A stretch of DNA of 64,000 bases, taken from the NCBI GenBank assembly GCA_963677755.1, contig OY782506.1, positions 958,137 through 1,022,136 on the forward strand. Direction: 5' to 3'. The notes under the pieces are model-generated. The model did no database searches, had not been told where the DNA came from, and saw nothing but the letters and a program-made list of their open reading frames with translations. This document shows positions 5,174 through 46,917 of this stretch, piece after piece. This stretch comes from Arcobacteraceae bacterium (lineage in GTDB: Bacteria > Campylobacterota > Campylobacteria > Campylobacterales > Arcobacteraceae). Position 1 is the first letter of the stretch. Each line of letters starts with the position of its first letter. The position numbers were made by a program, and so were the translations under genes.

Positions 5174-6400
5174 TTGAAACCACAAGATTTAAAATCAGAT
5201 CACAAAAAAAATATTTTACATGGATTTTTTCTCACAATTGGAACAACAATAGCTGAACCACATACAATTTTACCATTGATTATTAGTCATTTTGGCGGTG
5301 GGGCTATATTGATTGGTTTTTTCTCTTCTCTTCTTAGAGGTGGAGCTATTCTTGTGCAACTTTATGCTGCTTTTCATGCACAGAGTTATCCTAAAATGTT
5401 ACCTTATTTTAGAAGAGTTTTAGTAACACGATTTTTTGCTTGGTTGTTTATTGGTATAGCAATACTGATGATTGGAGATTCAAATCCTACTCTAACTTTA
5501 TGGTGTATTGGAGTTGGACTTTTTGTTTTTTCATTTGCTGCTGGGTTTGGTGCTATATATTTTAAAGAGATTATTGCAAAAGTATTTACCCATAAATTTA
5601 GAGGCAAAAGTATGTCGATACGCCAGTTCTTTTCAGGTGCTGGTGCAATTATGAGTGGAGCCGTTGCTGGGGTTATCTTAGCAAATTATGAAGCACCTTT
5701 AAGTTTTGGGATACTTTTTGTTGCATCTACTTTTATAATGGGATTTGGTTATTTAGCTGCTGGGACATTATCTGAACCTATAAAAGAAAATGTCGCTGTA
5801 AAAGAGAAGTCCTTTAAAGAATTTTTGAAAAATGCTTATAAAATCTTACAAAATGATTCTCAACTCAAAGTACAAGTTTTTACTTTTCTTTTAGCTTATT
5901 CATATTTGTTTGCTTTACCTTTTATAATTATTGATGCAAGTGATAAGATAGATCTTCACGGAACAGCAATCGGGATGCTTATAACTGCACAAATGGTAGG
6001 AGCAATGTTTAGTAATATTTTATGGGGAAAACTAAGTTCTCATGGGAAAAACAAACTCATAGCCCAAATTACAATTGCAACAACAATTTTTGCTATATTG
6101 TTAGCTTATATAAATAGTTCACTTTACGGTTATATGTTTCTATTTTTCCTTGTAGGAACAGCGATGGATGGAAATAGAATAGCTTCTGGAAATCTTATTT
6201 TAATTTTAGCACCAGAAGATAAAAGACCTGTATATACTGCTTTGCAAACAAATATTGTATCATTTGGATTGTTTTTTTCTATAATAGGAGGAGTTGTCTT
6301 AACTGTATCTTCTTATACTTTTTTATATAGTTTTACAGTTGCTTTTTTAGTTTTAGCAATGATTTTATCATTTAAATTGGAAGATGAAAAAAAATTATAA
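5174..6400 (+). CDS. MFS-type transporter
   Basis: 408 aa and highly hydrophobic, with about 12 predicted helices by eye. TTG start as given by the track. Confidence 0.75.
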   Translation: MKPQDLKSDHKKNILHGFFLTIGTTIAEPHTILPLIISHFGGGAILIGFFSSLLRGGAILVQLYAAFHAQSYPKMLPYFRRVLVTRFFAWLFIGIAILMIGDSNPTLTLWCIGVGLFVFSFAAGFGAIYFKEIIAKVFTHKFRGKSMSIRQFFSGAGAIMSGAVAGVILANYEAPLSFGILFVASTFIMGFGYLAAGTLSEPIKENVAVKEKSFKEFLKNAYKILQNDSQLKVQVFTFLLAYSYLFALPFIIIDASDKIDLHGTAIGMLITAQMVGAMFSNILWGKLSSHGKNKLIAQITIATTIFAILLAYINSSLYGYMFLFFLVGTAMDGNRIASGNLILILAPEDKRPVYTALQTNIVSFGLFFSIIGGVVLTVSSYTFLYSFTVAFLVLAMILSFKLEDEKKL

Positions 6401-6512
6401 ATTTAATATGTATACTTGTATATAAAATTTAAATTAGAAATGTAAGGTTACTTTAATATTCTTAAAGTTGCTTTTAACTATAATTATTCAAATAATAAAA
6501 TAAGGTTGGTTT

Positions 6513-8396
6513 TTGAATAAAATAAGATTTTCTTATATAGTTATTACTGCAGTTTTTTCTTTTCTTTTACTTACATTTATTTATCATCAAAATACACATG
6601 CTACAGCTGTAGATAATGCAAAAGCAAAAATAAATGAGCTGCTTCTTAATTATGAGGCAGTTCGTGCTTATGTTGGAAAAGTACAAAAAGAGGAGATATA
6701 TCATCTTCAACAAAAAGGTGTAGTAGATAAGGAATATTTTAGTCCAGCTTTATTATCGTCAACATTTAGTGCAAAAAACATTAATAATTTTTATAATGAG
6801 TTTAAAGGAAAACTACAACAAAGTCCTGTAACTATAAGATTTGCCAGTGATAATCCTAGAAATACCTCAAATAAAGCAACAAAAAAAGAATCAGAAATTT
6901 TACATAAGTTTAATACCCAAGAGATTAATGAATATAGTGAAATTATTGAGAAAAATGGCGAGCCTATTTTATACTATGTTTTACCTACAAAACCAACTGA
7001 TGAGAAATGTATGAGATGTCATTCAGACCCTAAGTTAGCACCAAAAGGATTAATAGAAATCTATGGAGATACAAATGGCTTTTATGAAAAAGTTGGAGAT
7101 ATTAGAGCAGTTTTATCTACAACTTACCCTTTAAGTAAAGACTTTAAGAGTGCCGATAAAACATTTATTATATTAACTTTAGTTACTTTTGTAGTTTTTG
7201 TAGGATTGTTAGTTTTAGTTTATTTTTTTACAAAAAAAATAAATGAGGCAAATGTTACACTAGATAAAAAAGTGGTTCAAAGAACAAAAGAATTAAAAGA
7301 GGAAAAAGAGCATATTAAAGCTATTTTAGATATTAATCCAAATATTATTATAGTTATACAAAATGACAGTATTATAAGTGCGAATAGACAATTTTTTAAA
7401 TTTTTTGATTGTAATTCAATCGAAGAATTTAAGGAAAAAAATAAAACAATTAGTAATTTAATTGTTGAGATTGATAAAAAAGCTCTCCCTAAAAACAATC
7501 AAATAAATGACTTACCTTGGTATGAGTATCTAGCAAATGTTAAAAAGAAAGTACACCATATCTTAATTGACTTTAACAATACACAAAGTTGTTTTCTCAC
7601 AAGTGCAACGCATTTTCATAATCAAGGAGATATTTTACTCACTTTTAATGATATTACAGAACAAATTAAAAAAGATAAACTTCTTGAAGAACAGACAAAA
7701 TTAGCTGCAATGGGAGAGATGATAGGAAATATTGCTCATCAATGGCGACAACCATTATCCGTAATATCTACAAGTTCTACAGGTATGCAAATACAAAAAG
7801 AGCATAATATGTTAGAAGATGATAAGTTTAATGAATACTGTAATATTATCAATGAAAATGTACAGTATCTCTCAAAAACTATAGATGATTTTAGAGATTT
7901 TATAAAAGCAGACAAAGAGAAGATGAATTTTCAACTTAATGATACAGTTAATAGTTTTTTAAAACTTGTAGATGGTTCTATTAAAAGTGAACATATAAAT
8001 ATTGTATTGGATATTGAAGAAGATATTACTTTGTACGGATACCCAAATGAATTAGTACAATGTTTTATGAATCTTTTTAATAATTCAAAAGATGCTTTAC
8101 AAACAATAGATGAAGAAAATAGATATATATTTATCTCAATTAAAAAAGAAAGTAGTGGTACTTTAATATCTTTTAAAGATAGTGCAAATGGGATTGATCC
8201 AAAAATTCAATCAAAAATTTTCGAACCATATTTCACCACAAAACATCAATCTCAAGGTACTGGACTGGGACTTCACATGGTTTATTCCATGATTGTTGAT
8301 AGTATGAGAGGTTCTATAGAGGTGAGAAATGTAGGGTTTACATACGAAAATAAATTTTTAAAAGGTACTGAATTTAAAATATTATTTACAAACTAA
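6513..8396 (+). CDS. sensor histidine kinase with periplasmic haem-c (DUF3365-like) domain and a PAS-like region
   Basis: 627 aa. N-terminal TM helix, CMRCH haem-c motif in the periplasmic part, second TM helix, H-box NIAHQWRQPL, and ATPase G-boxes (DSANGID, GTGLGLH). Confidence 0.8.
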   Translation: MNKIRFSYIVITAVFSFLLLTFIYHQNTHATAVDNAKAKINELLLNYEAVRAYVGKVQKEEIYHLQQKGVVDKEYFSPALLSSTFSAKNINNFYNEFKGKLQQSPVTIRFASDNPRNTSNKATKKESEILHKFNTQEINEYSEIIEKNGEPILYYVLPTKPTDEKCMRCHSDPKLAPKGLIEIYGDTNGFYEKVGDIRAVLSTTYPLSKDFKSADKTFIILTLVTFVVFVGLLVLVYFFTKKINEANVTLDKKVVQRTKELKEEKEHIKAILDINPNIIIVIQNDSIISANRQFFKFFDCNSIEEFKEKNKTISNLIVEIDKKALPKNNQINDLPWYEYLANVKKKVHHILIDFNNTQSCFLTSATHFHNQGDILLTFNDITEQIKKDKLLEEQTKLAAMGEMIGNIAHQWRQPLSVISTSSTGMQIQKEHNMLEDDKFNEYCNIINENVQYLSKTIDDFRDFIKADKEKMNFQLNDTVNSFLKLVDGSIKSEHINIVLDIEEDITLYGYPNELVQCFMNLFNNSKDALQTIDEENRYIFISIKKESSGTLISFKDSANGIDPKIQSKIFEPYFTTKHQSQGTGLGLHMVYSMIVDSMRGSIEVRNVGFTYENKFLKGTEFKILFTN

Positions 8397-8402
8397 TATC
8401 TC

Positions 8403-8432
8403 ATAGAATTTCTCATTCTATCTTTTTCTTTT
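8403..8432 (+). terminator. putative rho-independent terminator after the kinase gene
   Basis: ATAGAAT-ttctc-ATTCTAT hairpin followed by a T-rich tract. Confidence 0.4.
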
Positions 8433-8469
8433 CTCTTTGACTCAAATACCATTTCATTTCATGAATTTT

Positions 8470-8485
8470 CTTGACTTAGGTCAAG
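8470..8485. promoter_or_regulatory. Crp/Fnr-family-type palindromic operator candidate
   Basis: Perfect palindrome CTTGAC-TTAG-GTCAAG (TTGAC-N4-GTCAA class) about 75 nt upstream of the ATG at 8561. Confidence 0.45.
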
Positions 8486-8560
8486 GAAATTTTATTAGAA
8501 TAGTTATAAACTTTAAAACTATATTTATTTATTAAGTATTGATTAAAGAAAGGAGACTTT

Positions 8561-9094
8561 ATGAGTGGACCGAATCAATTTTGGATTAGAGTTGTACTAG
8601 TATTTATTGCAATTATTGGTATAGTTTTATTAGGACGAGCCATTATGCTACCAGATAGTTGGGGTCAGTATGGTTATTACAGAGGTGGATTTATAGACCA
8701 AGAAGCTCATAAAGATATGAAGTATGGTACCAATGAATCTTGTAAAGAATGTCATATTGAGGTTCTTGAATTAAAAGAACACTCATCTCACAAAAGGCTT
8801 GCCTGTGAAGCCTGTCACGCGCCCATTGCGGAGCATATAAAAAATAACAAGAAGTTTGTAGATATGCCAACTAAAAAAGGGGAACGACAAATTTCTCTTT
8901 GTTTAAATTGTCACCAAAAAGCTATCGGTAGACCTGAAAAATTTCCTATGATAGATCATAAAACTCATTTAAGTGAGCAAAATGTTAAGTCAACACATAC
9001 TTGTGATCAATGTCATACCGTTCATGCACCTCTAGAAAATATCAATCATGTTAAAAAACAAAGATCGTTAAAGGAGGCACTCAATGAAAAATAA
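8561..9094 (+). CDS. membrane-anchored tetrahaem cytochrome c
   Basis: 177 aa with an N-terminal TM helix and four CXXCH motifs (CKECH, CEACH, CLNCH, CDQCH). The architecture resembles NapC/NrfH or anchored c3-type cytochromes. Confidence 0.8.
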   Translation: MSGPNQFWIRVVLVFIAIIGIVLLGRAIMLPDSWGQYGYYRGGFIDQEAHKDMKYGTNESCKECHIEVLELKEHSSHKRLACEACHAPIAEHIKNNKKFVDMPTKKGERQISLCLNCHQKAIGRPEKFPMIDHKTHLSEQNVKSTHTCDQCHTVHAPLENINHVKKQRSLKEALNEK

Positions 9095-9899
9095 AATTAC
9101 TCAAGAGTTTATTGATAATGATAGAAGATCATTTATTGATAAAGTTGTAAAAGGTACGATTACTGGTTCATTAATGGTTATGATACCAATGAGTTCTAAA
9201 CTTTTTAGTGAAGTTTTAGGTGAAGAAAAAGAGGCACAAAGTGAAATAAATCCTATGGATTTAAATGCTAATTATTGTTTTATAGTGGATGTTACAGCTT
9301 GTATTGGCTGTGGCAATTGTTGTGTTGCCGATAGAAAAGAGAATAATGTTCCCCAAGGTCAGTATCGAACTTGGGTTGAAAGATATGTTATAGATATGGT
9401 AAATAAAGTGTATGTAGATTCACCAGATGGTGGAGAACATGGTTACAGTAATATACCAATTAATAAAACTATAAAAGAGATAAAAGAAGCATTTTTTGTA
9501 CCAAAGCTTTGTAATATGTGTGATGAACCTTCATGTACTCAAGTTTGTCCAGTAGCTGCTACATTTACGACACCTGATGGCTTTGTACTGGTTGATAGCG
9601 AGCATTGTGTTGCCTGTGGATATTGCATTCAAGCTTGCCCTTATGGTGTAAGATATATAAATAAAGATACGAAAACGGCTGATAAATGTACTTGGTGTTA
9701 CCATCGTGTGAGAAAAGGTAAATTACCTGCATGTGTAAATGCTTGTCCTACGGGAGCAAGAAAATTTGGTGACTTAAATGACCCATCTAGTGAAGTATCT
9801 AAAATTTATAATTCAAAATCTAGACTTAAAGTTCTTAAAAAAGATTTAGGAAATGAACCAAGCCTTTATTATATTGATCTACATGAGGAGGTAGTGTAA
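9084..9899 (+). CDS. Tat-exported 4Fe-4S protein, NrfC/PsrB/DmsB family
   Basis: 271 aa. Twin-arginine motif DRRSFIDK and four ferredoxin-type Cys groups (CIGCGNCC, CNMCDEPSCTQVCP, CVACGYCIQACP, CTWC...CVNACP). Overlaps the upstream gene by 11 nt. Confidence 0.85.
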   Translation: MKNKITQEFIDNDRRSFIDKVVKGTITGSLMVMIPMSSKLFSEVLGEEKEAQSEINPMDLNANYCFIVDVTACIGCGNCCVADRKENNVPQGQYRTWVERYVIDMVNKVYVDSPDGGEHGYSNIPINKTIKEIKEAFFVPKLCNMCDEPSCTQVCPVAATFTTPDGFVLVDSEHCVACGYCIQACPYGVRYINKDTKTADKCTWCYHRVRKGKLPACVNACPTGARKFGDLNDPSSEVSKIYNSKSRLKVLKKDLGNEPSLYYIDLHEEVV

Positions 9900-11092
9900 T
9901 GGAACATTTAGCTGTAGAAGCCTTAAACTTTGTATTTCCAAATGATACACATGCGCATTGGACTTTAATGATTGTAATTTACCCATATATTACAGGAGTA
10001 GTTGCTGGAGCCTTTATAGTATCTGCTTTGGCTCATGTATTTCATGTGCAGTCACTTATGCCAGTTGCAAAATTTGCATTAATATTTGCACTTGCTTGGT
10101 TGTTGTTTGTAACAGCACCACTTCTAAATCATTTAGGGCATCCTGAAAGAGCTTTGAGTATGCTTTTTACCCCAAACTTTGGTGGACCATCTATGATGGC
10201 AGGGTTTGGTTATATCTATATGACATATTCTATTCTTTTAATTTTCGAGATTTTATTTGTATTTAGATACGAAATGATTTTATTAAAAGAGAAATCAACT
10301 GGAGTTAAAAAAACAATTTACAATATATTAACTTTAGGTACAAATGACAAATCTATTGAAGGTAGAAAGATAGATAGAAAGGTTGCTTTTATATTAGCAG
10401 CTATTGGTATTCCACTTGCTTGTAGTTTACATGGGTATGTTGGATTTATCTTTGGTGCTGTTAAAACTGTAGAGTGGTGGTTTACTCCACTTATGCCAAT
10501 TATTTTTTTACTTTCTGCTTCTGTTTCTGGAATTGCAGGTATGATTTTATTTTATATTTTGATAAAAAAATTTACAGGTAAAATAAGTGAGATAAAAACA
10601 GAAACAATTAAAACACTAGTAAAACTTCTTTGGGCATTTTTTATATTAGATTTTTTGTTTGAAATGATAGAAATATCTGTTCATGCTTATGGTGGTACGG
10701 AGGGTTGGCATCATGTTAGTTCTGCTTTAAATGGTCCATTAAGCTGGTCGTTTTGGACTATGCAAGTTGAAATATTATCAATTATACCATTTATAGTACT
10801 TGGATTTTTGTCATTGAAAAATGTAAGTAGAAATACATTGATGATACTCTCTCCCATCATATCTTTTATGCTTTTAGCACAGGTTTTATTTATGAGATGG
10901 AATGTTGTAATAGGTGGGCAGATAATGGCAAAAAGTGAGAGAGGTTTTGCAGTATATCATCCAACAATGTTTGAAAAAGAAGGTATTTTAGTAACTATTA
11001 TCATGCTTGTGGCTCCCATAGTTACATTGTGGTTGTTAAGTAAAATATTCCCACTTTGGGAAACTCAAGTTGATAAAGAACCTTTAGTTTAA
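9899..11092 (+). CDS. NrfD/PsrC-family integral membrane quinone-interacting subunit
   Basis: 397 aa polytopic membrane protein. Its start codon overlaps the stop of the FeS gene (TAATG). Gene order is typical of NrfCD-type modules. Confidence 0.8.
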   Translation: MEHLAVEALNFVFPNDTHAHWTLMIVIYPYITGVVAGAFIVSALAHVFHVQSLMPVAKFALIFALAWLLFVTAPLLNHLGHPERALSMLFTPNFGGPSMMAGFGYIYMTYSILLIFEILFVFRYEMILLKEKSTGVKKTIYNILTLGTNDKSIEGRKIDRKVAFILAAIGIPLACSLHGYVGFIFGAVKTVEWWFTPLMPIIFLLSASVSGIAGMILFYILIKKFTGKISEIKTETIKTLVKLLWAFFILDFLFEMIEISVHAYGGTEGWHHVSSALNGPLSWSFWTMQVEILSIIPFIVLGFLSLKNVSRNTLMILSPIISFMLLAQVLFMRWNVVIGGQIMAKSERGFAVYHPTMFEKEGILVTIIMLVAPIVTLWLLSKIFPLWETQVDKEPLV

Positions 11093-11213
11093 AGTAGAAG
11101 TTGTTTATATGTACTAGTGTGCAGTGAAGAGTAAATATCATGTCGTTTATTGTTCATTGTACACTAGGAACTGATTTGTGGTAGGATGGTCGGATTTTAC
11201 AAAGGAGAATCTC

Positions 11214-12794
11214 ATGAAATTAAGCAAATTGTTAATTGCTATGGTATTAGTTGTTGGTTTGGGGAGTAGCTTATATGCTACGACAAAGGCTTCTTCAAAG
11301 GTAAGACATGAAAGTGTTAAAGATGCAAATGATAAGTGTGTTACATGTCACCTGAAAGAAAACAGGTCATTAGTTGATCATTATGAAAACTCAGCACATG
11401 CTGTATCAGATGTTGGATGTTTTACCTGTCATGCAGCAGATAAAAAAGATCCTTTAGGTTATGAACACGAAGGTGCTTTTATTAAAACAATTCAAACACC
11501 TAATGACTGTAATTTTTGTCATGTAAAAGAGGTGAAAGAGATGACAAACTCTCACCATGCAACTGCGGGTCAGATTATGGCATCTTTAGATAATATGCTT
11601 GCAGAAGTTATAGCATCTTTCCCAGATAGTAAAGCAGATGCTGTAAGTGGTTGTTGGCAATGTCATGGTGGAATTATTAAACCTGAAAAAGACAAACACG
11701 GTAAAATTATTTATAATGAGGCTGGTGCACCAGTTATGGATTGGATGACTTGGCCAAATTCAGGTATTGGTAGAATTAATCACGATGGAACAAGAGGCTC
11801 TTGTAATGCTTGTCACTCAAGACATGACTTTAGTTCTAGTCGGGCAAGACAACCAGAAAATTGTGGTAAATGTCACTTAGGTCCTGATCATCCTCAAAAA
11901 GAGATTTATGAAGAGTCTAAACACGGTATTGCCTATTATGCTGCACCAAAAGGTGATGTTCCAGGTGGTATGAATATTCATAAACAAGGTTCTTGGGTAT
12001 TAGGTAAAGATTATAACGCTGCACCTACTTGTGCTACTTGTCATATGGGTAGTTATAAAAAATCAAATGGTTCTATTGTAAAAGGAACACATAATGTTGG
12101 AGATAGAATTTCATGGACTTTGAGACCAGCTGTATCAGTTAAGTTGAATAGAGTAGTTTTTGAAGATGGTACTGTTCAAGATATTCCCGGTGAAAAAGCT
12201 CCAGCAATAGGTTCAATGCAAACTTTTAAAGATTATGAGAGAGTTGGAGATAAACTTAGCAAAATCATGAAAAAGAAAAAAGTTAAAGAGGTAATTTCTT
12301 GGGAAAAAAGAAGAGATAATATGAAACAAGTTTGTTCATCTTGTCACTCTGACCACCATGTGGATAACTTCTATAAACAATTTGATTCTTTAGTGAATAC
12401 ATATAATGATAAATTTGCAAAACCTGGTGTTGAACTAGTAAAACAAATGAAAAAAGATGGTGTTTGGAAGAAATCTGGGTTCCAACAAGATGATATAGGG
12501 TATATTTGGTTTGAGATATGGCATCATGAAGGGCGTCGAGCTAGACATGGAGCTGCAATGCAAGCACCAGATTTTACTCATTGGCATGGTATGTATGAAG
12601 TATCAAGACACTTTTATAATAAGTTTTTACCAAAAGTATTAAAACTTGCTAAAAAGGCTGGTATGGAAGATAAGTATAAAAAACTTATTAGTGATTTACT
12701 AGATAAACCTGAGCATGAATGGTATAAAACTGGTGGTAATCCTGCAACTCTTAAAATGATTGAAGAAGAGAATAAAGCAAGATACAAACAATAA
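11214..12794 (+). CDS. octahaem cytochrome c, hydroxylamine oxidoreductase (HAO) family
   Basis: Eight CXXCH motifs (CVTCH, CFTCH, CNFCH, CWQCH, CNACH, CGKCH, CATCH, CSSCH). HAO-like block CNACHSRHDFS...CGKCHLGPDHPQKEIYEESKHG. Signal peptide MKLSKLLIAMVLVVGLGSSLYA. ATG 11214 follows AAGGAG and is preferred over the track GTG at 11178. Confidence 0.8.
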   Translation: MKLSKLLIAMVLVVGLGSSLYATTKASSKVRHESVKDANDKCVTCHLKENRSLVDHYENSAHAVSDVGCFTCHAADKKDPLGYEHEGAFIKTIQTPNDCNFCHVKEVKEMTNSHHATAGQIMASLDNMLAEVIASFPDSKADAVSGCWQCHGGIIKPEKDKHGKIIYNEAGAPVMDWMTWPNSGIGRINHDGTRGSCNACHSRHDFSSSRARQPENCGKCHLGPDHPQKEIYEESKHGIAYYAAPKGDVPGGMNIHKQGSWVLGKDYNAAPTCATCHMGSYKKSNGSIVKGTHNVGDRISWTLRPAVSVKLNRVVFEDGTVQDIPGEKAPAIGSMQTFKDYERVGDKLSKIMKKKKVKEVISWEKRRDNMKQVCSSCHSDHHVDNFYKQFDSLVNTYNDKFAKPGVELVKQMKKDGVWKKSGFQQDDIGYIWFEIWHHEGRRARHGAAMQAPDFTHWHGMYEVSRHFYNKFLPKVLKLAKKAGMEDKYKKLISDLLDKPEHEWYKTGGNPATLKMIEEENKARYKQ

Positions 12795-12796
12795 TT

Positions 12797-12831
12797 TATA
12801 AAATCTTTGGGCTTTTGCCCAAGATTTTATA
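12797..12831 (+). terminator. rho-independent terminator after the octahaem gene
   Basis: AAAATCTTTGGGC-tttt-GCCCAAGATTTT hairpin followed by a T/A-rich tail. Confidence 0.6.
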
Positions 12832-12899
12832 ATATTAAATATTAAGTATTGAGTGTCAATATTTAAGATTTAATATTAAAATAAGAAATAGGAGAAATT

Positions 12900-13514
12900 A
12901 TGAAAGCTATAGTGAAAGTATTGTTGGTTGTATCTATATTTGGTACAGGTTTATTAAGTGCGAATGGTATTTATGAAAAAGTAGAAAATATGAAAAAAGG
13001 ACTTGATGGCTATATTCTGGGTTCAACTTTAAAAAAAGAACAGCAGAGCAATAGCATACCAAGTGATAATGATAAAGTAAAAAAGTATCTTATAAATGAT
13101 GATTTATTAATCGCTATAAATGTAAAAAATAACAAGATTTTAGCAATAAATAAAAGATTTAATGCGGTAAAACAATTAGAAATAAAATCAATGATTGGTT
13201 CATTAATACATGATTATGATGAACCAACAGCAATGGCACATGATAAAATGATATATTGGGTATATGATAAAAATGGTAAAAAATTAACAGAAGATGATTT
13301 AAAAAATTGGAAAGATTCATTAAAAGTTGCAAAAACAAAGTTACCTTTAGTAGAAGCAATTAAAGTAGATACTAAACAAGTTGATTTTGACCCTTATGTA
13401 TCAATAAAAATGACTTCAGACCAACCAATGATGACAAAAGTAAAAGATGAAAAGTTAGCTAATGTATACTTAATGGTTTCATCAGAAAAATTAATACAAA
13501 ATACAATGAAATAA
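12900..13514 (+). CDS. secreted hypothetical protein, 204 aa
   Basis: N-terminal signal peptide (MKAIVKVLLVVSIFGTGLLSA) and an RBS (AGGAG) upstream. No recognisable domain. Confidence 0.6.
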   Translation: MKAIVKVLLVVSIFGTGLLSANGIYEKVENMKKGLDGYILGSTLKKEQQSNSIPSDNDKVKKYLINDDLLIAINVKNNKILAINKRFNAVKQLEIKSMIGSLIHDYDEPTAMAHDKMIYWVYDKNGKKLTEDDLKNWKDSLKVAKTKLPLVEAIKVDTKQVDFDPYVSIKMTSDQPMMTKVKDEKLANVYLMVSSEKLIQNTMK

Positions 13515-13522
13515 AATAAATA

Positions 13523-14089
13523 ATGAAAACAATTTCACTATATACTAAAATACTATATATAGTTTTATTATTATCAATCAATAGTTTTGCTTCATCAAAA
13601 ATTGATTTATTAATTGAAAAAAAAGAGTTTGAGAAAATAGCAGACTTGATTAGTGAGACAAAAATTATTTATAGTGATACTAATCTTCCAGATAATTCGA
13701 ATGATGGTGATTTGATTATTATTAGTAATGAGTATGAAATAAAGCAATTTTTCGAATTTTACAATGGTATTTGGAATGAAAAAGTTACTGAAGAGATAGC
13801 TAAATTACTTGGCAATGATAGTGGGACAACATATGGAAATCTTTTTAATTATAAAGTGAATTCAAAAGAGTTTAATGCTTATGAAACAGATGATTTTAAA
13901 TATGAAAAAAGTGAAGTAAGTTCTGTTGTCGTGAAGATAATAAATTCAAAAAATAGTGAATATGACATTAATAATAATATTAATATATATTTAAAAGAGC
14001 ATACAATTGATATTGATAATATAATCAATATACAAATAAGTGATACAAATTTAAAAAATTGCAAAATAATAATTATTTATGAATTATAA
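13523..14089 (+). CDS. secreted hypothetical protein, 188 aa
   Basis: Signal peptide (LLLSINSFASS). Closely follows the previous ORF. Confidence 0.55.
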   Translation: MKTISLYTKILYIVLLLSINSFASSKIDLLIEKKEFEKIADLISETKIIYSDTNLPDNSNDGDLIIISNEYEIKQFFEFYNGIWNEKVTEEIAKLLGNDSGTTYGNLFNYKVNSKEFNAYETDDFKYEKSEVSSVVVKIINSKNSEYDINNNINIYLKEHTIDIDNIINIQISDTNLKNCKIIIIYEL

Positions 14090-14231
14090 TAAATGTAAAA
14101 CAAACCTTATAGGATATTATTAAGTACAATTAATTACTGTTATAATATTTACATTGTTAGGCTAGTTCTGTTATAATCTTTCATTATTTTTAAGAAGGAT
14201 ATTTTACAATGATTATCAAAAGGATTTCTTT

Positions 14232-16967
14232 ATGCAAGAGCAGAGTATAGTTAAAAAGTTTGCAGATATATTATTTTCATATTGGACAATGTTAATTTTA
14301 TTATTTTTATTAGGTGCAGGTGCAGGTGTTGCTACATTTATAGAAAATGATTTTGGTACATCAACGGCACGAGTTTTAGTTTATAATAACATATGGTATG
14401 AAGTAGTTATGGTGCTTACTTGTATTAACTTGCTTGGTATTATTTATAGAAGAAAAATGTGGAAGCAAAAAGCTAAGTTTATTTTTCATATCTCATTTGT
14501 AGTAATGTTAATTGGTGCTGGGATAACTCGATATGCAGGTTATGAAGGTATTATGCATATTAAAGAGGGACAAACACAAAATGAGATGATCTCTTTAGAG
14601 CCTTATTTACAAGTTACAATTATTGATAATGGAAAAACTTATTATGCAGAATTTCAAAAAGAATTTAGTGCAATAGGAAGTAATTATTTTAATCATGATA
14701 TTGAGTTTGGTGATAAAATTTTAAATATTGAATTAGATAATTACAAGTTTGCAAAAAAAGCAAAAGCTACTATGAATTTAATTGGAGTAAAGTTTACAAT
14801 TGATGATGAGGAAAAAGTAGAAAAACTTGTGGGACAAAGAGGAAATTCAGGTCTTGTAAGAGATATGAGTTTTCAAGAAAATGTTAGAGTAATAGTAACT
14901 TATGGTTCTAAACCTTTAACTGTACCATTTTCTATTAAATTAAATGATTTTCAACTAGATCGTTATCCAGGAAGTATGTCTCCATCTTCTTACGCAAGTG
15001 AAGTAACACTTATAGATGTGGAAAATGATGTTAAATTTGACTATAGGATATTTATGAATTCAACTTTAAAATATGGTGGTTTCCAATTTTTCCAAAGTTC
15101 ATATGACCCAGATGAAACTGGAACTGTACTTTCTGTAAATAAAGACCCAGGAACAATCCCTACATATATAGGATACTTTTTACTGGCACTTGGGCTTTTA
15201 ATGAATATGTTTGATAAAAAATCAAGATTTACAAAACTTCTTCAGTATACAAAACAGTTTAATAGTATAGCAATTATTCTTGTTGCAACAGCAATTTTTA
15301 CAAATACCTCTTATGCAAATGATACGGTAGAGTATCTTGAAAAGTATAAAGTAGAGTCAAAAGAAACTGCTAAATTGTTTGGTAAGTTAGTAACCCAATC
15401 AAGTATGGGAAGAATGAAACCTATTGATTCTTTAAATCGTGAAATACTTAATAAACTCTCAAGAAAAAGTTCATTTTTAGGTATGAATCCAGATCAAGTT
15501 GTATTAGGTATGATTACTCGTCCAGAGGTTTGGCGAGAGTTAAAAATGTTGAAAATAACAACTCCAAAACTTAAAAGAGAATTAGGACTTGAAGATAGTA
15601 GAAAGTATGTTGCTTTTTCTGAAATGTTTACACCACAAGGTGAATATAAACTAAAAGAACTTATTAACAGTGTAAATGCAATGAATCCAAATCAAAGAGG
15701 TACTTTTGAAAAGGATATTTTAAAACTTGATGAGCGATTAAATATTGCATATATGGTTTATTTTGGAAATTTATTTAATATTTTTCCACGACCTGATGAT
15801 GGGCATAACCACGACAATACCAAATGGTACACACCAATTGATGCAATGGATCAATTTCATGATAAAGATAAACAAATTGTACAGCTTATGGTTAGAGGAT
15901 TTATTGACAATGTGGTTGCTGCTAAATATGAAGATGCAAATAAATATATTGGTTTAATTGCACAGTTTCAAAGAAAAATAGGAAAAGATGTAATTCCATC
16001 AGAAGATGTTATTAATAGTGAGATACTTTTTAATGAATTATCAATATTTGGAAAGTTAACAATAGCATATATGCTACTTGGTATTATCTTATTTGTAGTG
16101 TCATTTTTAACTGTTTTCAATAAAAAGTGGACTTCAAAAAAACTTAATACAGCAATATTTGTAATACTAGCAGTGTTGTTTGCAATACACACTTTTGGTA
16201 TGGGACATAGATGGTATATAAGTGGACATGCTCCTTGGAGTGATACTTATGAGTCTTTAGTCTATATCGCTTGGTCTGTAATGTTTGCAGGGGTTATCTT
16301 CTTTAGAAAATCACTTATGGCACTAAGTGCTACAGTGGTTATGGCTGGAGTGTTTATGTTTACAGCACATCTTACAGGGATAGATCCACAAATAACAAAT
16401 CTTGTACCAGTTTTAAAATCATATTGGCTTACAATTCATGTATCTATTATTACAGGTTCTTATGGTTTCTTAGCAATAGGTGCTATGCTTGGATTTATGT
16501 CAATGGTTTTATTTATCTTTAGAGATCCAAATAAACCACATATTGATGACAATATTAAACATATAACGGCTATTAATGAAGCTGCACTTATATTAGGTTT
16601 AGCTGCTTTAGTTGTAGGAAACTTCTTAGGTGGAGTTTGGGCAAATGAGTCTTGGGGAAGATACTGGGGATGGGATCCTAAAGAGACTTGGGCTTATGTA
16701 GCTATTGTATTTTATGCATTGGTTATTCATCTTAGATTTATACCAAAACTTAATACACCTTATGTATTTGCAGTAGCTTCAACTTGGGCTTTTTCAACTA
16801 TATTGATGACATATTTTGGAGTAAACTTTTATCTTAGTGGAATGCACTCATATGCAACAGGTGATCCTGTACCAATTCCTACATGGGCTTATGTTCTGAC
16901 TTCATTAGTATTGGTTGTGACACTACTTGCTAGTAGAAAAAGGGATTTATCTAAATTAAAAGTATAA
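14232..16967 (+). CDS. ccsBA: fused system II cytochrome c synthase CcsBA (ResB-CcsA)
   Basis: 911 aa. N-terminal ResB-like region with a large periplasmic loop. C-terminal CcsA with the WWD motif WGRYWGWDPKETW and conserved His residues. Confidence 0.9.
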   Translation: MQEQSIVKKFADILFSYWTMLILLFLLGAGAGVATFIENDFGTSTARVLVYNNIWYEVVMVLTCINLLGIIYRRKMWKQKAKFIFHISFVVMLIGAGITRYAGYEGIMHIKEGQTQNEMISLEPYLQVTIIDNGKTYYAEFQKEFSAIGSNYFNHDIEFGDKILNIELDNYKFAKKAKATMNLIGVKFTIDDEEKVEKLVGQRGNSGLVRDMSFQENVRVIVTYGSKPLTVPFSIKLNDFQLDRYPGSMSPSSYASEVTLIDVENDVKFDYRIFMNSTLKYGGFQFFQSSYDPDETGTVLSVNKDPGTIPTYIGYFLLALGLLMNMFDKKSRFTKLLQYTKQFNSIAIILVATAIFTNTSYANDTVEYLEKYKVESKETAKLFGKLVTQSSMGRMKPIDSLNREILNKLSRKSSFLGMNPDQVVLGMITRPEVWRELKMLKITTPKLKRELGLEDSRKYVAFSEMFTPQGEYKLKELINSVNAMNPNQRGTFEKDILKLDERLNIAYMVYFGNLFNIFPRPDDGHNHDNTKWYTPIDAMDQFHDKDKQIVQLMVRGFIDNVVAAKYEDANKYIGLIAQFQRKIGKDVIPSEDVINSEILFNELSIFGKLTIAYMLLGIILFVVSFLTVFNKKWTSKKLNTAIFVILAVLFAIHTFGMGHRWYISGHAPWSDTYESLVYIAWSVMFAGVIFFRKSLMALSATVVMAGVFMFTAHLTGIDPQITNLVPVLKSYWLTIHVSIITGSYGFLAIGAMLGFMSMVLFIFRDPNKPHIDDNIKHITAINEAALILGLAALVVGNFLGGVWANESWGRYWGWDPKETWAYVAIVFYALVIHLRFIPKLNTPYVFAVASTWAFSTILMTYFGVNFYLSGMHSYATGDPVPIPTWAYVLTSLVLVVTLLASRKRDLSKLKV

Positions 16968-16998
16968 AAAAAGGTTGCTTTTTAGCAACCTTTTTTAT
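16966..16998. terminator. bidirectional terminator between convergent genes
   Basis: AAAAAAGGTTGCT-tttt-AGCAACCTTTTTT. Confidence 0.6.
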
Positions 16999-17861
16999 TT
17001 TCCAATTTTTATAACACTTTTAAGAAGTTGGTATAATAAAAATAAAAAAACAAGTGGAAAAAATATGGTTTTAAAACTAAATGCTACAATAAGATTTAAA
17101 ATATAATCACTTGTTTTTTCTGTCGTTTTTTGATACTCATTTACTTTGTTTTTGTAGTAGTTTAGATTAAAAATATTATTTGTGACACTATTAAAAGTTT
17201 GTGTTATGGAGTCAACTAAACTATTGTCTTTTTCAGATATAGTTTGTTTATCTTCTATTGTTTGTTGTGTGATATTATTAATATTTTCAGCTGATTTATT
17301 AATCAAGTTTTGATTTATCTCTATATTGTAATCATTTTTTACATAATGTTCATAAACAAAACTATTTAACATTGACATAATAGGTATACTAAATCGTAAA
17401 AATATCAAAACGATAGTTACCCTAAAAAAAATATCTCTAATTTTTATATCATTTGAAAATCTTATAAACATCCAAATATTTAAAATAACAATAAAGACTA
17501 TAACAATGATTGTAAATATATCCCCAGAAACAAAGTTTAAAAGTATTTTTTGAATACCAAGAGAGGTTATACTTGCTAACATAATCCACGAAAACTGTTC
17601 AACTAAATCATTAATAGGGTCAAGTACTTCACCTACACTAATAGTTAAAATTGCTGCATTTATTTCTGTTCCTTGTGCTAAAGAAATAGCACCATTGAGA
17701 CCTTTTGCTACAGCAAACACTTTTATAGCACTACTAAGTGAATCTGTAACGATAGATTCGCCTTTAGTATCTATTTGAACTGTATATGATATTGTGATGA
17801 TGAAAAAAGAAAAAAGAACAATCAGTATTTTGTTAAAATTTATTTTTACTAGGTGTAGCAT
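16995..17861 (-). CDS. hypothetical membrane protein, 288 aa
   Basis: Several hydrophobic helices. No recognised motif. Confidence 0.55.
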   Translation of the reverse strand: MLHLVKINFNKILIVLFSFFIITISYTVQIDTKGESIVTDSLSSAIKVFAVAKGLNGAISLAQGTEINAAILTISVGEVLDPINDLVEQFSWIMLASITSLGIQKILLNFVSGDIFTIIVIVFIVILNIWMFIRFSNDIKIRDIFFRVTIVLIFLRFSIPIMSMLNSFVYEHYVKNDYNIEINQNLINKSAENINNITQQTIEDKQTISEKDNSLVDSITQTFNSVTNNIFNLNYYKNKVNEYQKTTEKTSDYILNLIVAFSFKTIFFPLVFLFLLYQLLKSVIKIGK

Positions 17862-17908: not shown

Positions 17909-19735
17909 TTAGATTATTAAATACCTTTTTCCCTCTTTATTTTCTATACTACTTGTTTGGTCTAGATAATCTAAATAGGCTATCATATATTTTCTACTCA
18001 TATTATATTTTTGTTTAAAGTTTTTAATATCTATATATCCCTCTTCTTTGATAATATTTTTCATAGAGGTTATTAAGTTAGAGAGTACTTGTACCTCTAC
18101 AAATAAGTTGTGTTGTATCCTTATTAGAAGTTTTTTCTTTGTAAGTGATTTTAAAACATTATCGCCAAGTTTTCTATCAATATCTAAATCATCATATATA
18201 TTATATGGAGCTGTTGGGGTAAACCCCTCATTTTTTAATCTTTGTAATATGATATTAGATAACTTATCTTCAATATTCTCTTTTATATTACTATTTTTAT
18301 ATAGATTTCCCTCTTGGGTAAGTATATTTTCGTTGCACAGTTCTTGTAATGCAAGCTCTATAAAAGTATCACTTGCCCAAACAAGTCTTAGTCCAATAGA
18401 GCTATTTGATAGTAATGCATATTTATTTTTTGTGTAGATATTTTTAATAATATTTTTAATAGTCTCTTTAGTCTCTATTGGATAGATAACTAAAGATTTT
18501 TCATCTATAAAACAGTTCACCATATTATTTGCAAATCGTAAAGCTTCTTCGTGACTAAGGGCAAATCTTTGAGCAGAAGATACCAAACCTAAACCTTTTT
18601 TATGTACTTGCAATAATATTTTGTAAGCATCTGAAATATTGTTTTTTTCCAACACTTTTAAAAGTTCTAATTTTTGTGATTTTTTCATTGGGTCTATAAT
18701 TGGGTTTAAAATAATTCCACCAGCAATAGTGGTATTCCCTTGTCTAATAATTAACTTCTCACCATAAATTGAAAAAATATCTTCATTTGCTTTAATTGTT
18801 GCAAAACCATTTTCTAATATTAAAACTCTTGCTTCGATTTTTTTTGAACCTATGTAGATTGAATATACTACATTATGAGAAAGCTCTTTCCCTTTTAATA
18901 TACTATACGAAATATCTACTTGATTAAAACCTCTTAAAAAGCCTTTTTTACTAATTACAAAACCTTTTTTGATAAGTTTTGTGTCAATACTTTGTAGATT
19001 TAACGCTGCTCTATTTGAGATATTTGCAGTTTTTGTATCTTCTCCATGTACTTGAATTGCTTTTAATTTTACCTCTTTTTTTATATCACAGATAAAAACT
19101 TTCTCATCTTGCGATATAGGGTTTCCAAGAACTGTACCTGTTACAATAGTACCACTTCCTTTTGTATTAAAAACTCTATCTACATAATATCTAAAAAAGT
19201 TTTCAGATGGTTTTGTATCTGCTTGAAGTTCAAAAAGTCCCTCTTTTAATTCTTCAATAGAATCTTCATCAAATATAGAGACACTTTTTGATAAAACAAT
19301 ATCAAAATCATAAGAGTTGATAAACTCAATTATCTCATCTGTATTTTTTTGAAGCTCTTGTGGTGAAACTAAATCTTTTTTTGTGATAACTACAATTGCT
19401 TTTTTTAATCCTAGTATATTTAATATATCAAGATGCTCTATAGTTTGAGGCATAATTTTCTCTTTTGCACTGACAACTATCATAACAACATCAAAACTAA
19501 ATGCACCAGCAATCATATTTTTTACCAGTTTTTCATGTCCTGGAACATCTATAAAAGCGATATTCTTTTCACCTTGTGTAAGGTTAGAAAAAGATAAGTC
19601 TATGGTGATACCTCTTTGTTTTTCCTCATTTGTAGTATCACCCTCATAGCCATTAAGTGCTTTAACTAAAGCTGTTTTACCATGGTCAATATGTCCACAA
19701 GTTCCTACTATATAATTATACATCGCAAATTTCAC
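17909..19735 (-). CDS. selB: selenocysteine-specific elongation factor SelB
   Basis: 608 aa. GTPase motifs GHIDHGKT and DVPGHE, long C-terminal winged-helix extension, and a 20-nt overlap with selA. Confidence 0.92.
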   Translation of the reverse strand: MKFAMYNYIVGTCGHIDHGKTALVKALNGYEGDTTNEEKQRGITIDLSFSNLTQGEKNIAFIDVPGHEKLVKNMIAGAFSFDVVMIVVSAKEKIMPQTIEHLDILNILGLKKAIVVITKKDLVSPQELQKNTDEIIEFINSYDFDIVLSKSVSIFDEDSIEELKEGLFELQADTKPSENFFRYYVDRVFNTKGSGTIVTGTVLGNPISQDEKVFICDIKKEVKLKAIQVHGEDTKTANISNRAALNLQSIDTKLIKKGFVISKKGFLRGFNQVDISYSILKGKELSHNVVYSIYIGSKKIEARVLILENGFATIKANEDIFSIYGEKLIIRQGNTTIAGGIILNPIIDPMKKSQKLELLKVLEKNNISDAYKILLQVHKKGLGLVSSAQRFALSHEEALRFANNMVNCFIDEKSLVIYPIETKETIKNIIKNIYTKNKYALLSNSSIGLRLVWASDTFIELALQELCNENILTQEGNLYKNSNIKENIEDKLSNIILQRLKNEGFTPTAPYNIYDDLDIDRKLGDNVLKSLTKKKLLIRIQHNLFVEVQVLSNLITSMKNIIKEEGYIDIKNFKQKYNMSRKYMIAYLDYLDQTSSIENKEGKRYLII

Positions 19736-21065
19736 TTACTATAGCTATAACAGTGTTTAGTTCTGATTCTTGAATAGTTCTAAAATCTAATAAAAATTTA
19801 TCATCTTCAATCCGTCCTATCACTTTTTTATCTCTAAAAAGTTTTTCAATTTTACTTGGTTTGTAATTTTTAAACTCTATAGTTAAAGCAATAGTTGGTA
19901 TTTTTCTATTAGGGGTTGTCCCTCCACCAATCAATGTTTGAGTCTCAATAATAGTAGATTTACAAATATCTTTTATTTTATTTTCTACTTTAGTTGCCCT
20001 TTGTTTTAAAGTATCTATAGGGGTAAAAAGCATATTAAGTGTAGGGATTTTCTCTTTTTTATCAAGTAAAAGTGAAATGATATTATCTTCTAAAATTGCT
20101 AGAGTGATTTTATCAACACGCAACATTCTTAGTAGTTGATTTTTTTTCAGTTGCTCAATATACTTTTTTTTACCTACAATAATCCCTGCTTGTACTGACC
20201 CTAGTAGTTTATCTCCTGAAAAACTTACCAAACTTGGATTAGATCTCATTATCTCTTTAACACTAGGCTCTGTTTGATTTAGATTGTATGGTAGATCAAT
20301 CATATGTCCACTACCCATATCAAAATAATCTATAAGATTGTTTTTTGTAGCTACTTCAACTATCTCTTCATGGGAAACTTCACTTGTAAAACCCTCAATA
20401 GAGTAGTTTGACTTATGAACTTTCATCAATATAGCACTATTCTCATTACAAGCGTTTTCATAGTCTTTTAGATGTGTTTTATTTGTAGTTCCTATCTCTT
20501 TTAAAATAGCACCACTACTAGACATAACATCAGGAACTCTAAAACTACCACCAATCTCCACAAGTTCTCCTCGACTTACTACTGCTTCTTTATTTTGAGC
20601 AAAAGTGTTAAGGACTAAAAATACAGCACTCGCGTTATTATTCACTATTAAAACATCTTCACACTCTAAAAGTTCACATAAGGCTTTTGATATATGTGAG
20701 TATCTTTCTCCCCGTTTCCCTTTATCTAGGTCATATTCTAAATTATTGTATGAGGTAACAATATCTTTTACTTTTTCAAAACTCTCTGGAGCTATAAGGC
20801 TTCTGCCTAAGTTTGTATGGACTATGATACCTGTTGCATTTATAACTTTTTTTAAAGATGGTGAGATGATATCTTGATACTCATTTATCACTTTTAGAGT
20901 AAGAAGCTCCTCATCTATAGTAGTTATATCTTTGTTTATAATACCTATTCGTAAATCATCAATAATCTTTTTTGATATTTTGGTAACAAGTTTTGTTGAT
21001 AGATTATCAAATGCACTATTTTGTACAAATTTATCTACTTTTGGGATAGACTTAAGTAAAAGCAT
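19716..21065 (-). CDS. selA: L-seryl-tRNA(Sec) selenium transferase SelA
   Basis: 449 aa. PLP-lysine motif FSGDKLLGSVQAGIIVG. Sits next to selB and tRNA-Sec. Confidence 0.93.
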   Translation of the reverse strand: MLLLKSIPKVDKFVQNSAFDNLSTKLVTKISKKIIDDLRIGIINKDITTIDEELLTLKVINEYQDIISPSLKKVINATGIIVHTNLGRSLIAPESFEKVKDIVTSYNNLEYDLDKGKRGERYSHISKALCELLECEDVLIVNNNASAVFLVLNTFAQNKEAVVSRGELVEIGGSFRVPDVMSSSGAILKEIGTTNKTHLKDYENACNENSAILMKVHKSNYSIEGFTSEVSHEEIVEVATKNNLIDYFDMGSGHMIDLPYNLNQTEPSVKEIMRSNPSLVSFSGDKLLGSVQAGIIVGKKKYIEQLKKNQLLRMLRVDKITLAILEDNIISLLLDKKEKIPTLNMLFTPIDTLKQRATKVENKIKDICKSTIIETQTLIGGGTTPNRKIPTIALTIEFKNYKPSKIEKLFRDKKVIGRIEDDKFLLDFRTIQESELNTVIAIVSEICDV

Positions 21066-21117
21066 TTTTACCCTTTCAGTTTAATTTAATCTTTATAGTG
21101 TAAAATTTCTCTGTTAG

Positions 21118-21217
21118 TGGGGGGTATGTGATCCTGGTGGACACCACAGGTTTCAACCCTGATTGGAGGTATTTGTGTAAACGCCTCGGTAGGTTCGATT
21201 CCTACACCTTCTCACCA
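21118..21217 (+). tRNA. selC: tRNA-Sec (anticodon UCA)
   Basis: Canonical T arm GTAGG-TTCGATT-CCTAC (21189-21205). 7-nt loop TT-TCA-AC with TCA at 21153-21155. 6-bp D stem with one bulge and a 4-nt loop (TGGT). Long extra arm (21166-21187) and encoded CCA (21215-21217). The acceptor pairs the G-run 21119-21125 with 21206-21212 using several G-U pairs, so the exact 5' end is uncertain. Confidence 0.7.
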
Positions 21218-21298
21218 AAATATTTTGGACCCTCACGAACTCTTATACAATATCATTTAAACTTCTTGATTTTATCAAATCTAATGTATTATTTTACT

Positions 21299-21322
21299 TA
21301 AAAAGTCAAATCTATTTGACCT
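21299..21322 (-). terminator. putative terminator of the chemoreceptor gene
   Basis: GTCAAA-tcta-TTTGAC hairpin followed by a T-run on the minus strand. Confidence 0.4.
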
Positions 21323-21379
21323 TAATTTATAAGATAGAAGTGGAACTTTTGTGGAAAGAGAAAGAGGTGATATAAACTA

Positions 21380-23653: not shown

Positions 23654-23770
23654 AATAAAGTTTTATTTGGGATTATAAAGAAATAATTATTAAAAAATGG
23701 TAAATTAAAATTTACCATTTTAAAAAAGAAGATTAAATGTAGAGTAAAATATTTTTATATAGTATATTAT

Positions 23771-26445: not shown

Positions 26446-26446
26446 T

Positions 26447-37311: not shown

Positions 37312-37320
37312 GAGTAAGAT

Positions 37321-37914: not shown

Positions 37915-37923
37915 GAGATAATT

Positions 37924-38880: not shown

Positions 38881-38881
38881 G

Positions 38882-45347: not shown

Positions 45348-45356
45348 GAGTAAGAT

Positions 45357-45950: not shown

Positions 45951-45959
45951 GAGATAATT

Positions 45960-46916: not shown

Positions 46917-46917
46917 G

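Follow-up and report, generated by a model that had tools for sequence, protein, structure and literature searches.

The window analysed here comprises 64,000 nucleotides of an Arcobacteraceae bacterium (NCBI GenBank assembly GCA_963677755.1, contig OY782506.1, positions 958,137 to 1,022,136 of the forward strand) and contains, at 8561-12794, a cluster of four open reading frames (ORFs) on the + strand encoding a tetrahaem cytochrome c, an iron-sulfur (Fe-S) protein, an NrfD-family protein and an octahaem cytochrome. An initial annotation of the sequence described this same set of genes, quoted the block CNACHSRHDFS...CGKCHLGPDHP and stated that every haem motif is a plain CXXCH; all four ORFs are confirmed at those positions, the block is found in the octahaem protein, and the motif holds at 12 of the 12 haem sites. 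Its extent of four genes stands only in part: the four genes are real, but the conserved unit holds at least one further gene, encoded at 12900-13514 and hereafter called the fifth gene (Table 1). The operon is a Campylobacterota example of a type described with a hypothesised function only, an identical operon appearing in genome papers on Thermodesulfobacteriota and Dissulfuribacter.

Table 1. Features of the operon and its flanks, in positions of the window.
Feature	Position	Strand	Evidence
Sensor histidine kinase with a periplasmic Tll0287-like domain and a CMRCH haem-c motif	6513..8396	+	PF11845 at 100.6 bits, HisKA, HATPase_c
Candidate operator of the Crp/Fnr-family type, 12-nt inverted repeat	8464..8491		conserved palindrome
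Membrane-anchored tetrahaem cytochrome c, 177 aa	8561..9094	+	4 CXXCH, one N-terminal hydrophobic helix
Tat-exported periplasmic Fe-S subunit of the NrfC/PsrB/TtrB/DsrO type, 271 aa	9084..9899	+	RRSFI, PF13247
NrfD-family integral membrane subunit, 397 aa	9899..11092	+	PF03916
Octahaem cytochrome c of the HAO family, IhOCC-like branch, 526 aa	11214..12794	+	8 CXXCH, PF13447
Terminator-like GC hairpin followed by a T-run, directly after the octahaem stop codon	12806..12823	+	consensus match only
Conserved fifth gene, periplasmic protein of 204 aa	12900..13514	+	downstream homologues in relatives
Sixth gene, secreted protein of 188 aa	13523..14089	+	homologues in Campylobacterota operons
Fused CcsBA (ResB-CcsA) system II cytochrome c synthase	14232..16967	+	PF05140, PF01578, TIGR03144

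The first gene overlaps the second by 11 nt and the second overlaps the third by 1 nt, which suggests that the three are translationally coupled. ATG 11214, rather than the GTG at 11178, is almost certainly the start codon of the octahaem gene, because an AAGGAG Shine-Dalgarno sequence lies 7 nt upstream and the resulting product of 526 residues matches the length of its homologues. About 20 nt 5' of this Shine-Dalgarno sequence lies a G-rich motif, GTGGTAGGATGGTCGGA (11178-11194, +), kept as DNA in the related loci L002, L083 and L088 while the remainder of the spacer diverges; it is not a conserved peptide. The whole 124-nt spacer between the NrfD-like and octahaem genes has a minimum free energy of -35.5 kcal/mol and includes an RNA hairpin (11114-11167, +; ~22 pairs, z-score -4.1), which was rejected as a conserved element; it is missing from the shorter spacers of the relatives and may therefore be an insertion specific to the window. 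An Rfam scan of 6000-17500 returned nothing relevant.

The octahaem protein comprises a Sec signal peptide, eight CXXCH motifs and exactly 16 Cys, all within these motifs, with no CXXCK. Its placement in the HAO family, which forms clade 1 of PMC9250108 and was already proposed by the initial annotation, is borne out by the family model PF13447 (76.3 bits against a cut-off of 21.9) and by an hhalign alignment with the HAO of Nitrosomonas europaea (NeHAO; 99.8% probability), in which haems 1-8 are in register; the NeHAO sequence used was verified, with PDB fragments falling at the right offsets and an exact look-up returning HAO_NITEU. The best solved relative is IhOCC from Ignicoccus hospitalis (PDB code, 4QO5), matched at E 2e-43 with the single sequence and 40% identical over 223 core residues, whereas NeHAO, Kuenenia HOX, HDH and kustc0458 reach only 1e-11 to 5e-15 in the same single-sequence comparison with the PDB. 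With a 28-sequence profile, 4QO5 is matched at E 6e-72, compared to 8e-30 for HAO, HDH and Kuenenia HAO-like proteins. In addition, an insertion of 40 residues between haems 4 and 5 (WPNxGIGRxNxDG) is common to IhOCC and gapped in NeHAO. None of the 120 best matches listed, a minority of which carry a source name, is labelled Campylobacter, Nautilia or Caminibacter.

The haem 4 motif of the octahaem protein, CWQCH (C147), aligns in hhalign with the P460 haem motif of NeHAO, CTMCH, and many residues around haem 4 are invariant across phyla. D225 and H226, invariant in 28 family sequences, align with NeHAO Asp267 and His268, which in HAO structures form the distal pair at the catalytic haem 4. 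Opposite NeHAO Tyr334 stands R304, an Arg invariant in 28/28 family sequences, at a position whose alignment is secured by conserved Trp and Pro residues on either side. In neither the global hhalign nor a manual alignment was a conserved Tyr found opposite NeHAO Tyr467, the residue that the neighbouring subunit contributes to the cross-link with haem 4, in a C-terminal region where the alignment is weak: (i) the local hhalign stops at about residue 424, short of Tyr467; (ii) the low-confidence global hhalign places Tyr467 opposite the conserved K505, the adjacent Y504 not being conserved; and (iii) a manual helix-loop-helix alignment disagrees with the latter and places it opposite the invariant W457. 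IhOCC itself has been described as an octahaem nitrite reductase without a P460 haem (PMC9250108). With no conserved cross-link Tyr found, a reductive direction is to be expected, and the octahaem protein is, as judged from its sequence, probably an IhOCC-type, cross-link-free and hence reductive enzyme of the HAO family.

Membership in the MccA, ONR or Otr groups was rejected: the hallmark CXXCK of ONR is absent, 16 Cys leave none for the Cu-binding Cys or the CX15CH site that Hermann and colleagues reportedly described in 2015 as features of MccA, and no chain of MccA, ONR or Otr, the last a fold with a Lys-ligated haem, was among the PDB matches of the octahaem protein (E<=1 for MccA). An AlphaFold2 model of the protein, built from a 19-sequence alignment, reached a pLDDT of 55 and returned only meaningless Foldseek matches, so that a structural ranking against HAO, ONR, MccA and Otr was impossible.

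The redox partners proposed by the initial annotation, a tetrahaem cytochrome with an NrfC/NrfD-type module, are upheld by the family scores. The tetrahaem protein, anchored by a single hydrophobic helix (residues 11-29) and bearing four CXXCH motifs, belongs to neither of the familiar carrier families: it has no match to the NapC/NrfH model PF03264 and scores 17.8 on the NrfB-like model PF22678, against a cut-off of 27. Its sole similarity in the PDB is to the N-terminal module of the octahaem nitrite reductase 8RV0 (E 2.6e-5), and it is presumed to be the electron link from the Fe-S subunit to the octahaem enzyme. The Fe-S protein carries a conserved twin-arginine translocation (Tat) motif, RRSFI, at residues 14-18 and 16 Cys in four groups, invariant in 28 homologues and predicted to bind four [4Fe-4S] clusters. 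The first of these motifs (CIGCGNCC, residues 73-80) reads CX2CX2CC and not the usual CX2CX2CX3C, a departure that is itself invariant in 28/28 clade homologues. The protein scores 91.7 bits on PF13247 (Fer4_11) and its best PDB match is PsrB (2VPW_B, E 3e-45), whereas every subfamily model remains below its cut-off, including (i) TtrB, at 207 bits; (ii) DsrO, the second-best NCBIfam match, at 155.9 versus 200; (iii) the NrfC equivalog TIGR03149, at 151.8 versus 377.6; and (iv) QrcC, at 92.6 versus 400.

The NrfD-like protein shows ~9-10 hydrophobic segments and scores 128 bits on PF03916 (NrfD), compared to 48.4 versus a cut-off of 347.6 on the NrfD equivalog TIGR03148 and 39.8 versus 350 on DsrP; a phmmer search of the PDB gave no match for it. 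Homology to NrfC and NrfD is thus clear at the superfamily level (PF13247, PF03916) despite equivalog scores below the cut-offs. The module follows NrfBCD in its logic and DsrJOP/ActABC in its gene order, and is an equivalog-level member of none of them. The NrfD-family subunit is presumed to act as a menaquinol dehydrogenase, and every redox centre is predicted to face the periplasm, because the octahaem protein has a Sec signal, the tetrahaem protein a signal anchor and the Fe-S protein a Tat motif.

The extent of the unit was examined in a scan of one genome per species: relatives of the octahaem protein turned up in more than 590 species genomes, and the best 80 loci were kept. From these and eight loci fetched by protein identity (all cited below as L numbers), a clade of 29 distinct loci was defined, in which the octahaem protein is at least 58% identical to that of the window. 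The Fe-S and NrfD genes are present in 28 of the 29 and the tetrahaem gene in 27. The octahaem gene is followed directly by a homologue of the fifth gene in 26/29 clade loci and in 0/57 loci of other octahaem cytochrome c (OCC) homologues. The hosts comprise Arcobacteraceae, Sulfurovum, Sulfurimonadaceae, Sulfurospirillaceae, Desulfobacterales, Desulfobulbaceae and Thermosulfurimonas, and a neighbour-joining tree with NeHAO as its root groups the NrfCD-wired octahaem proteins into a single clade, comprising one subclade of Campylobacterota and one of Desulfobacterota.

The fifth-gene product has a signal peptide, no Cys and no match in Pfam or NCBIfam. Its AlphaFold2 model (pLDDT 85, pTM 0.77) finds nothing in the PDB at E<0.01 by Foldseek, so that no function can be assigned from structure; it is probably an accessory subunit or an assembly factor. 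The sixth-gene product likewise matches no Pfam or NCBIfam family, and its homologues, confined to Campylobacterota operons, follow the fifth gene in L001, L002, L083/84, L086 and L088. In Thermosulfurimonas, a gene for a 523-residue outer-membrane β-barrel of the Alginate_exp type (L081, 12280-13851) lies between the fifth gene and napMADGH, and a weaker homologue follows the octahaem gene in the Verrucomicrobia locus L030.

Outside the clade, the other OCC homologues (57 loci, ~40-52% identical) lack all genes of the NrfCD operon. A cytochrome b gene stands directly upstream of the octahaem gene in 35 of these loci, and in five gammaproteobacterial loci (Agarivorans, Grimontia, Neiella) a NapC/NrfH tetrahaem gene lies downstream (PF03264, E ~1e-50). 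One catalytic cytochrome is therefore joined to three quinol-oxidising modules, (i) NrfCD plus the tetrahaem protein in the clade, (ii) cytochrome b and (iii) NapC/NrfH. These distant homologues (L024-L080) occur in Verrucomicrobiota, Planctomycetota including Brocadia, Gemmatimonadota, Acidobacteriota, Nitrospira and others; they mostly have a cytochrome b gene of the bc1/b6 type directly upstream, and often napA directly downstream.

Upstream of the operon, the initial annotation pointed to a palindrome of the Crp/Fnr type. The site is real and its conservation is supported by phylogenetic footprinting: its arms (8464-8475 and 8480-8491) are 92% complementary, and its perfect TTGAC-N4-GTCAA core, TTGACTTAGGTCAA, occupies 8471-8484; this core lies 90 nt ahead of the first ATG and is the only exact occurrence in the window. 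The exact core appears once per locus, just 5' of the first gene, in five Campylobacterota lineages (L001, L002, L083/84, L086 and L088), and also upstream of the octahaem gene in the Verrucomicrobiota loci L026 and L032; it was not found in the Desulfobacterota loci, where pairs of a Tll0287-type kinase and a response regulator often adjoin the operon instead. Genes of the Crp/Fnr family flank the operon in L002, L086 and L088. In Campylobacterota, the operon is probably controlled by a regulator of this family (NssR/Dnr-like) acting through TTGAC-N4-GTCAA, as far as the sequences indicate. The sensor histidine kinase encoded just upstream (Table 1) has no adjacent response regulator. Kinases with the same sensor domain, each paired with a response regulator, are found next to the operon in L011, L018, L021, L022 and L081 (Desulfobacterota, Thermosulfurimonas), making the window kinase a further candidate regulator of the operon.

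Gene context in the relatives suggests a link between the operon and nitrogen oxides. In an Arcobacter metagenome-assembled genome (MAG-3, L002, 75% identity) and in a member of Sulfurospirillaceae (L088, 72%), a Crp/Fnr gene stands on either side of the operon, and a single gene separates the second of these from napAGHBF, with the NapA, NapG and NapH equivalog models above cut-off in the former. In a metagenomic locus (L086, 86% identity), the operon lies between napD/Crp and nrtABC-nasA-nirA. Furthermore, napMADGH adjoins the operon in Thermosulfurimonas and a MAG of Desulfobulbaceae, and hcp does so in three Desulfobacterales loci. A nitrogen-oxide gene occurs within 10 kb in 9/29 clade loci and in 17/57 loci of other OCC homologues; these counts are lower bounds, because many contigs are short, and compare with a random-gene expectation that we estimate at roughly ~1%. 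Thermosulfurimonas dismutans and Dissulfuribacter thermophilus reduce nitrate to ammonium without NrfA and carry the operon beside napMADGH (PMC5276818; also PMC9676032). Two genome papers, of 2017 and 2022, hypothesise nitrite reduction for the operon, with sulfur compounds as the alternative (PMC5276818, PMC9676032), and a literature search found no biochemical or genetic study of it.

The initial annotation held that neither the substrate nor the direction of electron flow could be read from the sequence. This caution remains partly justified, as the reading is not complete, but the failure to find a conserved cross-link Tyr, together with the adjacency of nap, hcp and nas genes in relatives, points to the reduction of a nitrogen oxide. 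The complex is accordingly read here, with a confidence a little above even, as a menaquinol-dependent periplasmic reductase of nitrite and/or NO or hydroxylamine. The analysis demonstrates the gene content, cofactor motifs, export signals, family placement, conservation of both operon and operator, and neighbourhood counts; we infer complex formation, electron path, direction, substrate, product, energy coupling and the identity of the regulator. Judging from homology and topology, the NrfD-family subunit would oxidise menaquinol, and the electrons would then travel via the Tat-exported subunit, with its four putative [4Fe-4S] clusters, and the anchored tetrahaem protein to the octahaem cytochrome, where haem 4 would be the catalytic site. 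The most likely substrates would be nitrite and/or the products of its partial reduction, NO and hydroxylamine, arising downstream of periplasmic nitrate reductase, and the operon could stand in for NrfA in respiratory ammonification or in the relief of nitrosative stress.

Several points weigh against a nitrogen-oxide reductase. In the window itself, no nap, nir, hcp or Crp/Fnr gene was found within ~20 kb among the ORFs scanned, and 20 of the 29 clade loci have no nitrogen gene nearby, though many of these are short contigs. The weak C-terminal alignment to NeHAO and the poor AlphaFold model (pLDDT 55) leave the absence of the cross-link unproven. Ignicoccus, the source of IhOCC, is a sulfur reducer, and many multihaem cytochromes reduce nitrite in vitro. 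Almost all of the hosts take part in sulfur cycling, and the best scores of the Fe-S subunit are to TtrB, DsrO and PsrB. PMC9213671 also proposes a sulfur role for HAO-family relatives in Desulfobacterota.

Part of this evidence would suit a complex with the same architecture and electron path that reduces a sulfur compound such as sulfite, tetrathionate, thiosulfate or polysulfide, an alternative named in PMC5276818 that we consider unlikely. The affinity of the Fe-S subunit to TtrB (207 bits), DsrO and PsrB and the lifestyle of the hosts (Sulfurovum, Sulfurimonadaceae, Desulfobacterota, sulfur disproportionators) speak for it, as do the sulfur reduction proposed for the Desulfobacterota relatives and the absence of nearby nitrogen genes from most Desulfobacterales loci; the invariant Arg at the NeHAO Tyr334 position would fit any oxyanion. 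On the other hand, every Fe-S equivalog score is below its cut-off, the MccA hallmarks are absent from a protein with 16 Cys only and no PDB match to MccA or Otr was obtained, and the neighbours that recur across several phyla are nap, hcp and nas/nirA, whereas no sulfur-metabolism gene turned up in the annotated neighbourhoods, although the loci were not screened for such genes. A sulfur substrate would make this the first HAO-family enzyme of the sulfur cycle, outside the nitrogen cycle, in analogy to MccACD.

The octahaem protein might instead be a non-catalytic periplasmic relay or store of electrons, fed by the quinol pool and serving other reductases or extracellular acceptors, as proposed for the IhOCC-type cytochromes of Ignicoccus, which are reduced by hydrogenase (PMC4429474). 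Many loci give no clue to a substrate, which would suit such a role; however, the Asp-His pair is invariant at the HAO active-site position, many residues near haem 4 are invariant across phyla and the linkage to nap is tight in many lineages, and we regard it as quite improbable. Least credible is an oxidative enzyme that would take electrons from hydroxylamine, hydrazine or another reduced compound and deliver them to menaquinone through the NrfD module, as in Qrc: canonical HAO and HDH, the P460 enzymes of clade III, are oxidative and NrfD modules can work both ways (PMC8076601), but no conserved cross-linking Tyr was found, the closest solved relative is devoid of P460 (PMC9250108), the studied cross-link-free members of the HAO family are reductive (PMC12758564, PMC9250108) and, on general bioenergetic grounds, few candidate donors could favourably reduce low-potential menaquinone.

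The reading as a reductase of nitrogen oxides can be extended to a more ambitious and doubtful proposal, in which (i) the clade would provide the physiological nitrite-to-ammonium reductase of ammonifiers without NrfA, namely Thermosulfurimonas, Dissulfuribacter and possibly many Desulfobacterota and Campylobacterota; (ii) the enzyme would be a stable five-subunit complex including the periplasmic protein of new fold; and (iii) catalysis would be electrogenic through the 9-10-helix NrfD-like subunit. Such an enzyme would constitute a third, energy-conserving complex of respiratory nitrite ammonification beside NrfHA and NrfABCD. Several cultured bacteria ammonify nitrate without NrfA, and on genomic grounds the operon is the foremost candidate for the enzyme responsible. 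Its distribution extends well beyond the few thermophiles from which it was first noted, and it is relevant to surveys of the nitrogen cycle, which now count only nrfA and onr as markers of ammonification; the clade also offers concrete targets for genetics and biochemistry.

The neighbours of the operon in the window are the kinase, a transporter of the major facilitator superfamily (MFS), CcsBA, selenium genes and formate dehydrogenases. CcsBA was considered as a dedicated haem lyase and rejected: all haem sites of the operon are standard CXXCH, a promoter-like site precedes the CcsBA gene (14148-14177, matching at 11/12 positions), and the adjacency is found only in the window and in L001, a locus of the same species, and in no other. 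It is probably a general haem lyase. Further downstream, selA, selB and a selD-like gene lie at 17909-24808, and two paralogous formate-dehydrogenase-like clusters (34513-39709 and 42549-47745, +) each comprise a molybdopterin subunit, an Fe-S protein, a cytochrome b561 and FdhD. The catalytic gene of the second cluster includes an in-frame TGA (43089-43091, context HQARI-U-HSPT), which marks its product as a selenocysteine enzyme, and that of the first is an uninterrupted ORF of 932 residues without this TGA. A 2-hydroxyacyl-CoA dehydratase D-component-like gene with a BcrAD/BadFG-type activator ATPase (25123-27208, +) and a sulfur-transport protein of the YeeE/YedE type (29525-30562, +) appear unrelated to the operon.

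Compared to known systems, the operon is built of familiar modules, flagged earlier in the literature, and may be important for ammonification without NrfA. Beyond the earlier descriptions, the analysis assigns the octahaem protein to the IhOCC type, identifies an Arg in place of Tyr334, adds to the unit a conserved operator and a fifth gene whose product resembles no known fold, shows that the octahaem family is wired in three modular ways and quantifies the linkage to nitrogen-oxide genes. The closest counterparts are TDIS_0606-0609 of T. dismutans, DBT_2326-2329 of D. thermophilus and the loci of T. marina and strain F29, which encode the same four proteins in the same order beside napMADGH and for which hypotheses, and no assigned function, have been published (PMC5276818, PMC9676032). 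In Thermosulfurimonas sp. (L081/L082), the octahaem homologue P0115 has 59% identity, and the five genes, that of the downstream periplasmic protein among them, follow one another as in the window. The window operon differs from the Thermosulfurimonas/Dissulfuribacter locus in being detached from nap, in its Campylobacterota-specific sixth gene and in having an operator of the Crp/Fnr type where the other has a two-component system whose response regulator is adjacent. IhOCC (Igni_0955) is archaeal, ends ~40 residues earlier than the window protein and has no NrfCD or tetrahaem partners reported in PMC4429474.

The initial annotation set the partner wiring apart from that of epsilon-Hao enzymes, described with an NrfH-type quinol dehydrogenase only. 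The distinction stands in that the operon encodes no NapC/NrfH protein, but the arrangement is not without precedent: the same gene set had already been described (PMC5276818, PMC9676032), and MccACD already combines an octahaem cytochrome with NrfCD (PMC8076601), although a 2021 catalogue of NrfD-containing complexes lists no HAO-type complex (PMC8076601). The epsilon-Hao of Campylobacter, Nautilia and Caminibacter is likewise an HAO-family octahaem protein, of a Campylobacterota lineage in HAO clade II, lacks the Tyr cross-link and reduces nitrite in vitro (PMC9213671, PMC10949509), its proposed partner being CycB, a NapC/NrfH-type tetrahaem cytochrome (PMC5276818). MccACD of Wolinella succinogenes offers an epsilonproteobacterial octahaem cytochrome, a sulfite reductase, fed by an NrfCD-type module (PMC8076601); nevertheless, MccA falls in another clade of the superfamily (PMC9250108), and MccACD does without a further tetrahaem cytochrome.

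E. coli NrfABCD shares with the window operon a catalytic multihaem cytochrome, a carrier cytochrome, a 4x[4Fe-4S] NrfC and a quinol-oxidising NrfD (PMC12285233, PMC8076601). The individual subunits differ: NrfA is pentahaem with CXXCK, whereas the catalytic subunit in the window is an octahaem protein of the HAO type with a CXXCH active-site haem; NrfB is a soluble pentahaem protein, whereas the carrier in the window is a membrane-anchored tetrahaem protein; and the Fe-S and NrfD-like subunits of the window are far below the NrfC and NrfD equivalog cut-offs. Finally, DsrJOP, Qrc and alternative complex III preserve the same order of a membrane-anchored cytochrome c, a Tat-exported Fe-S protein and an NrfD-like protein, but the window operon contains neither the molybdopterin-like subunit of Qrc and alternative complex III (QrcB/ActB) nor the cytoplasmic DsrMK partners of DsrMKJOP, and displays an attached octahaem protein in their place.

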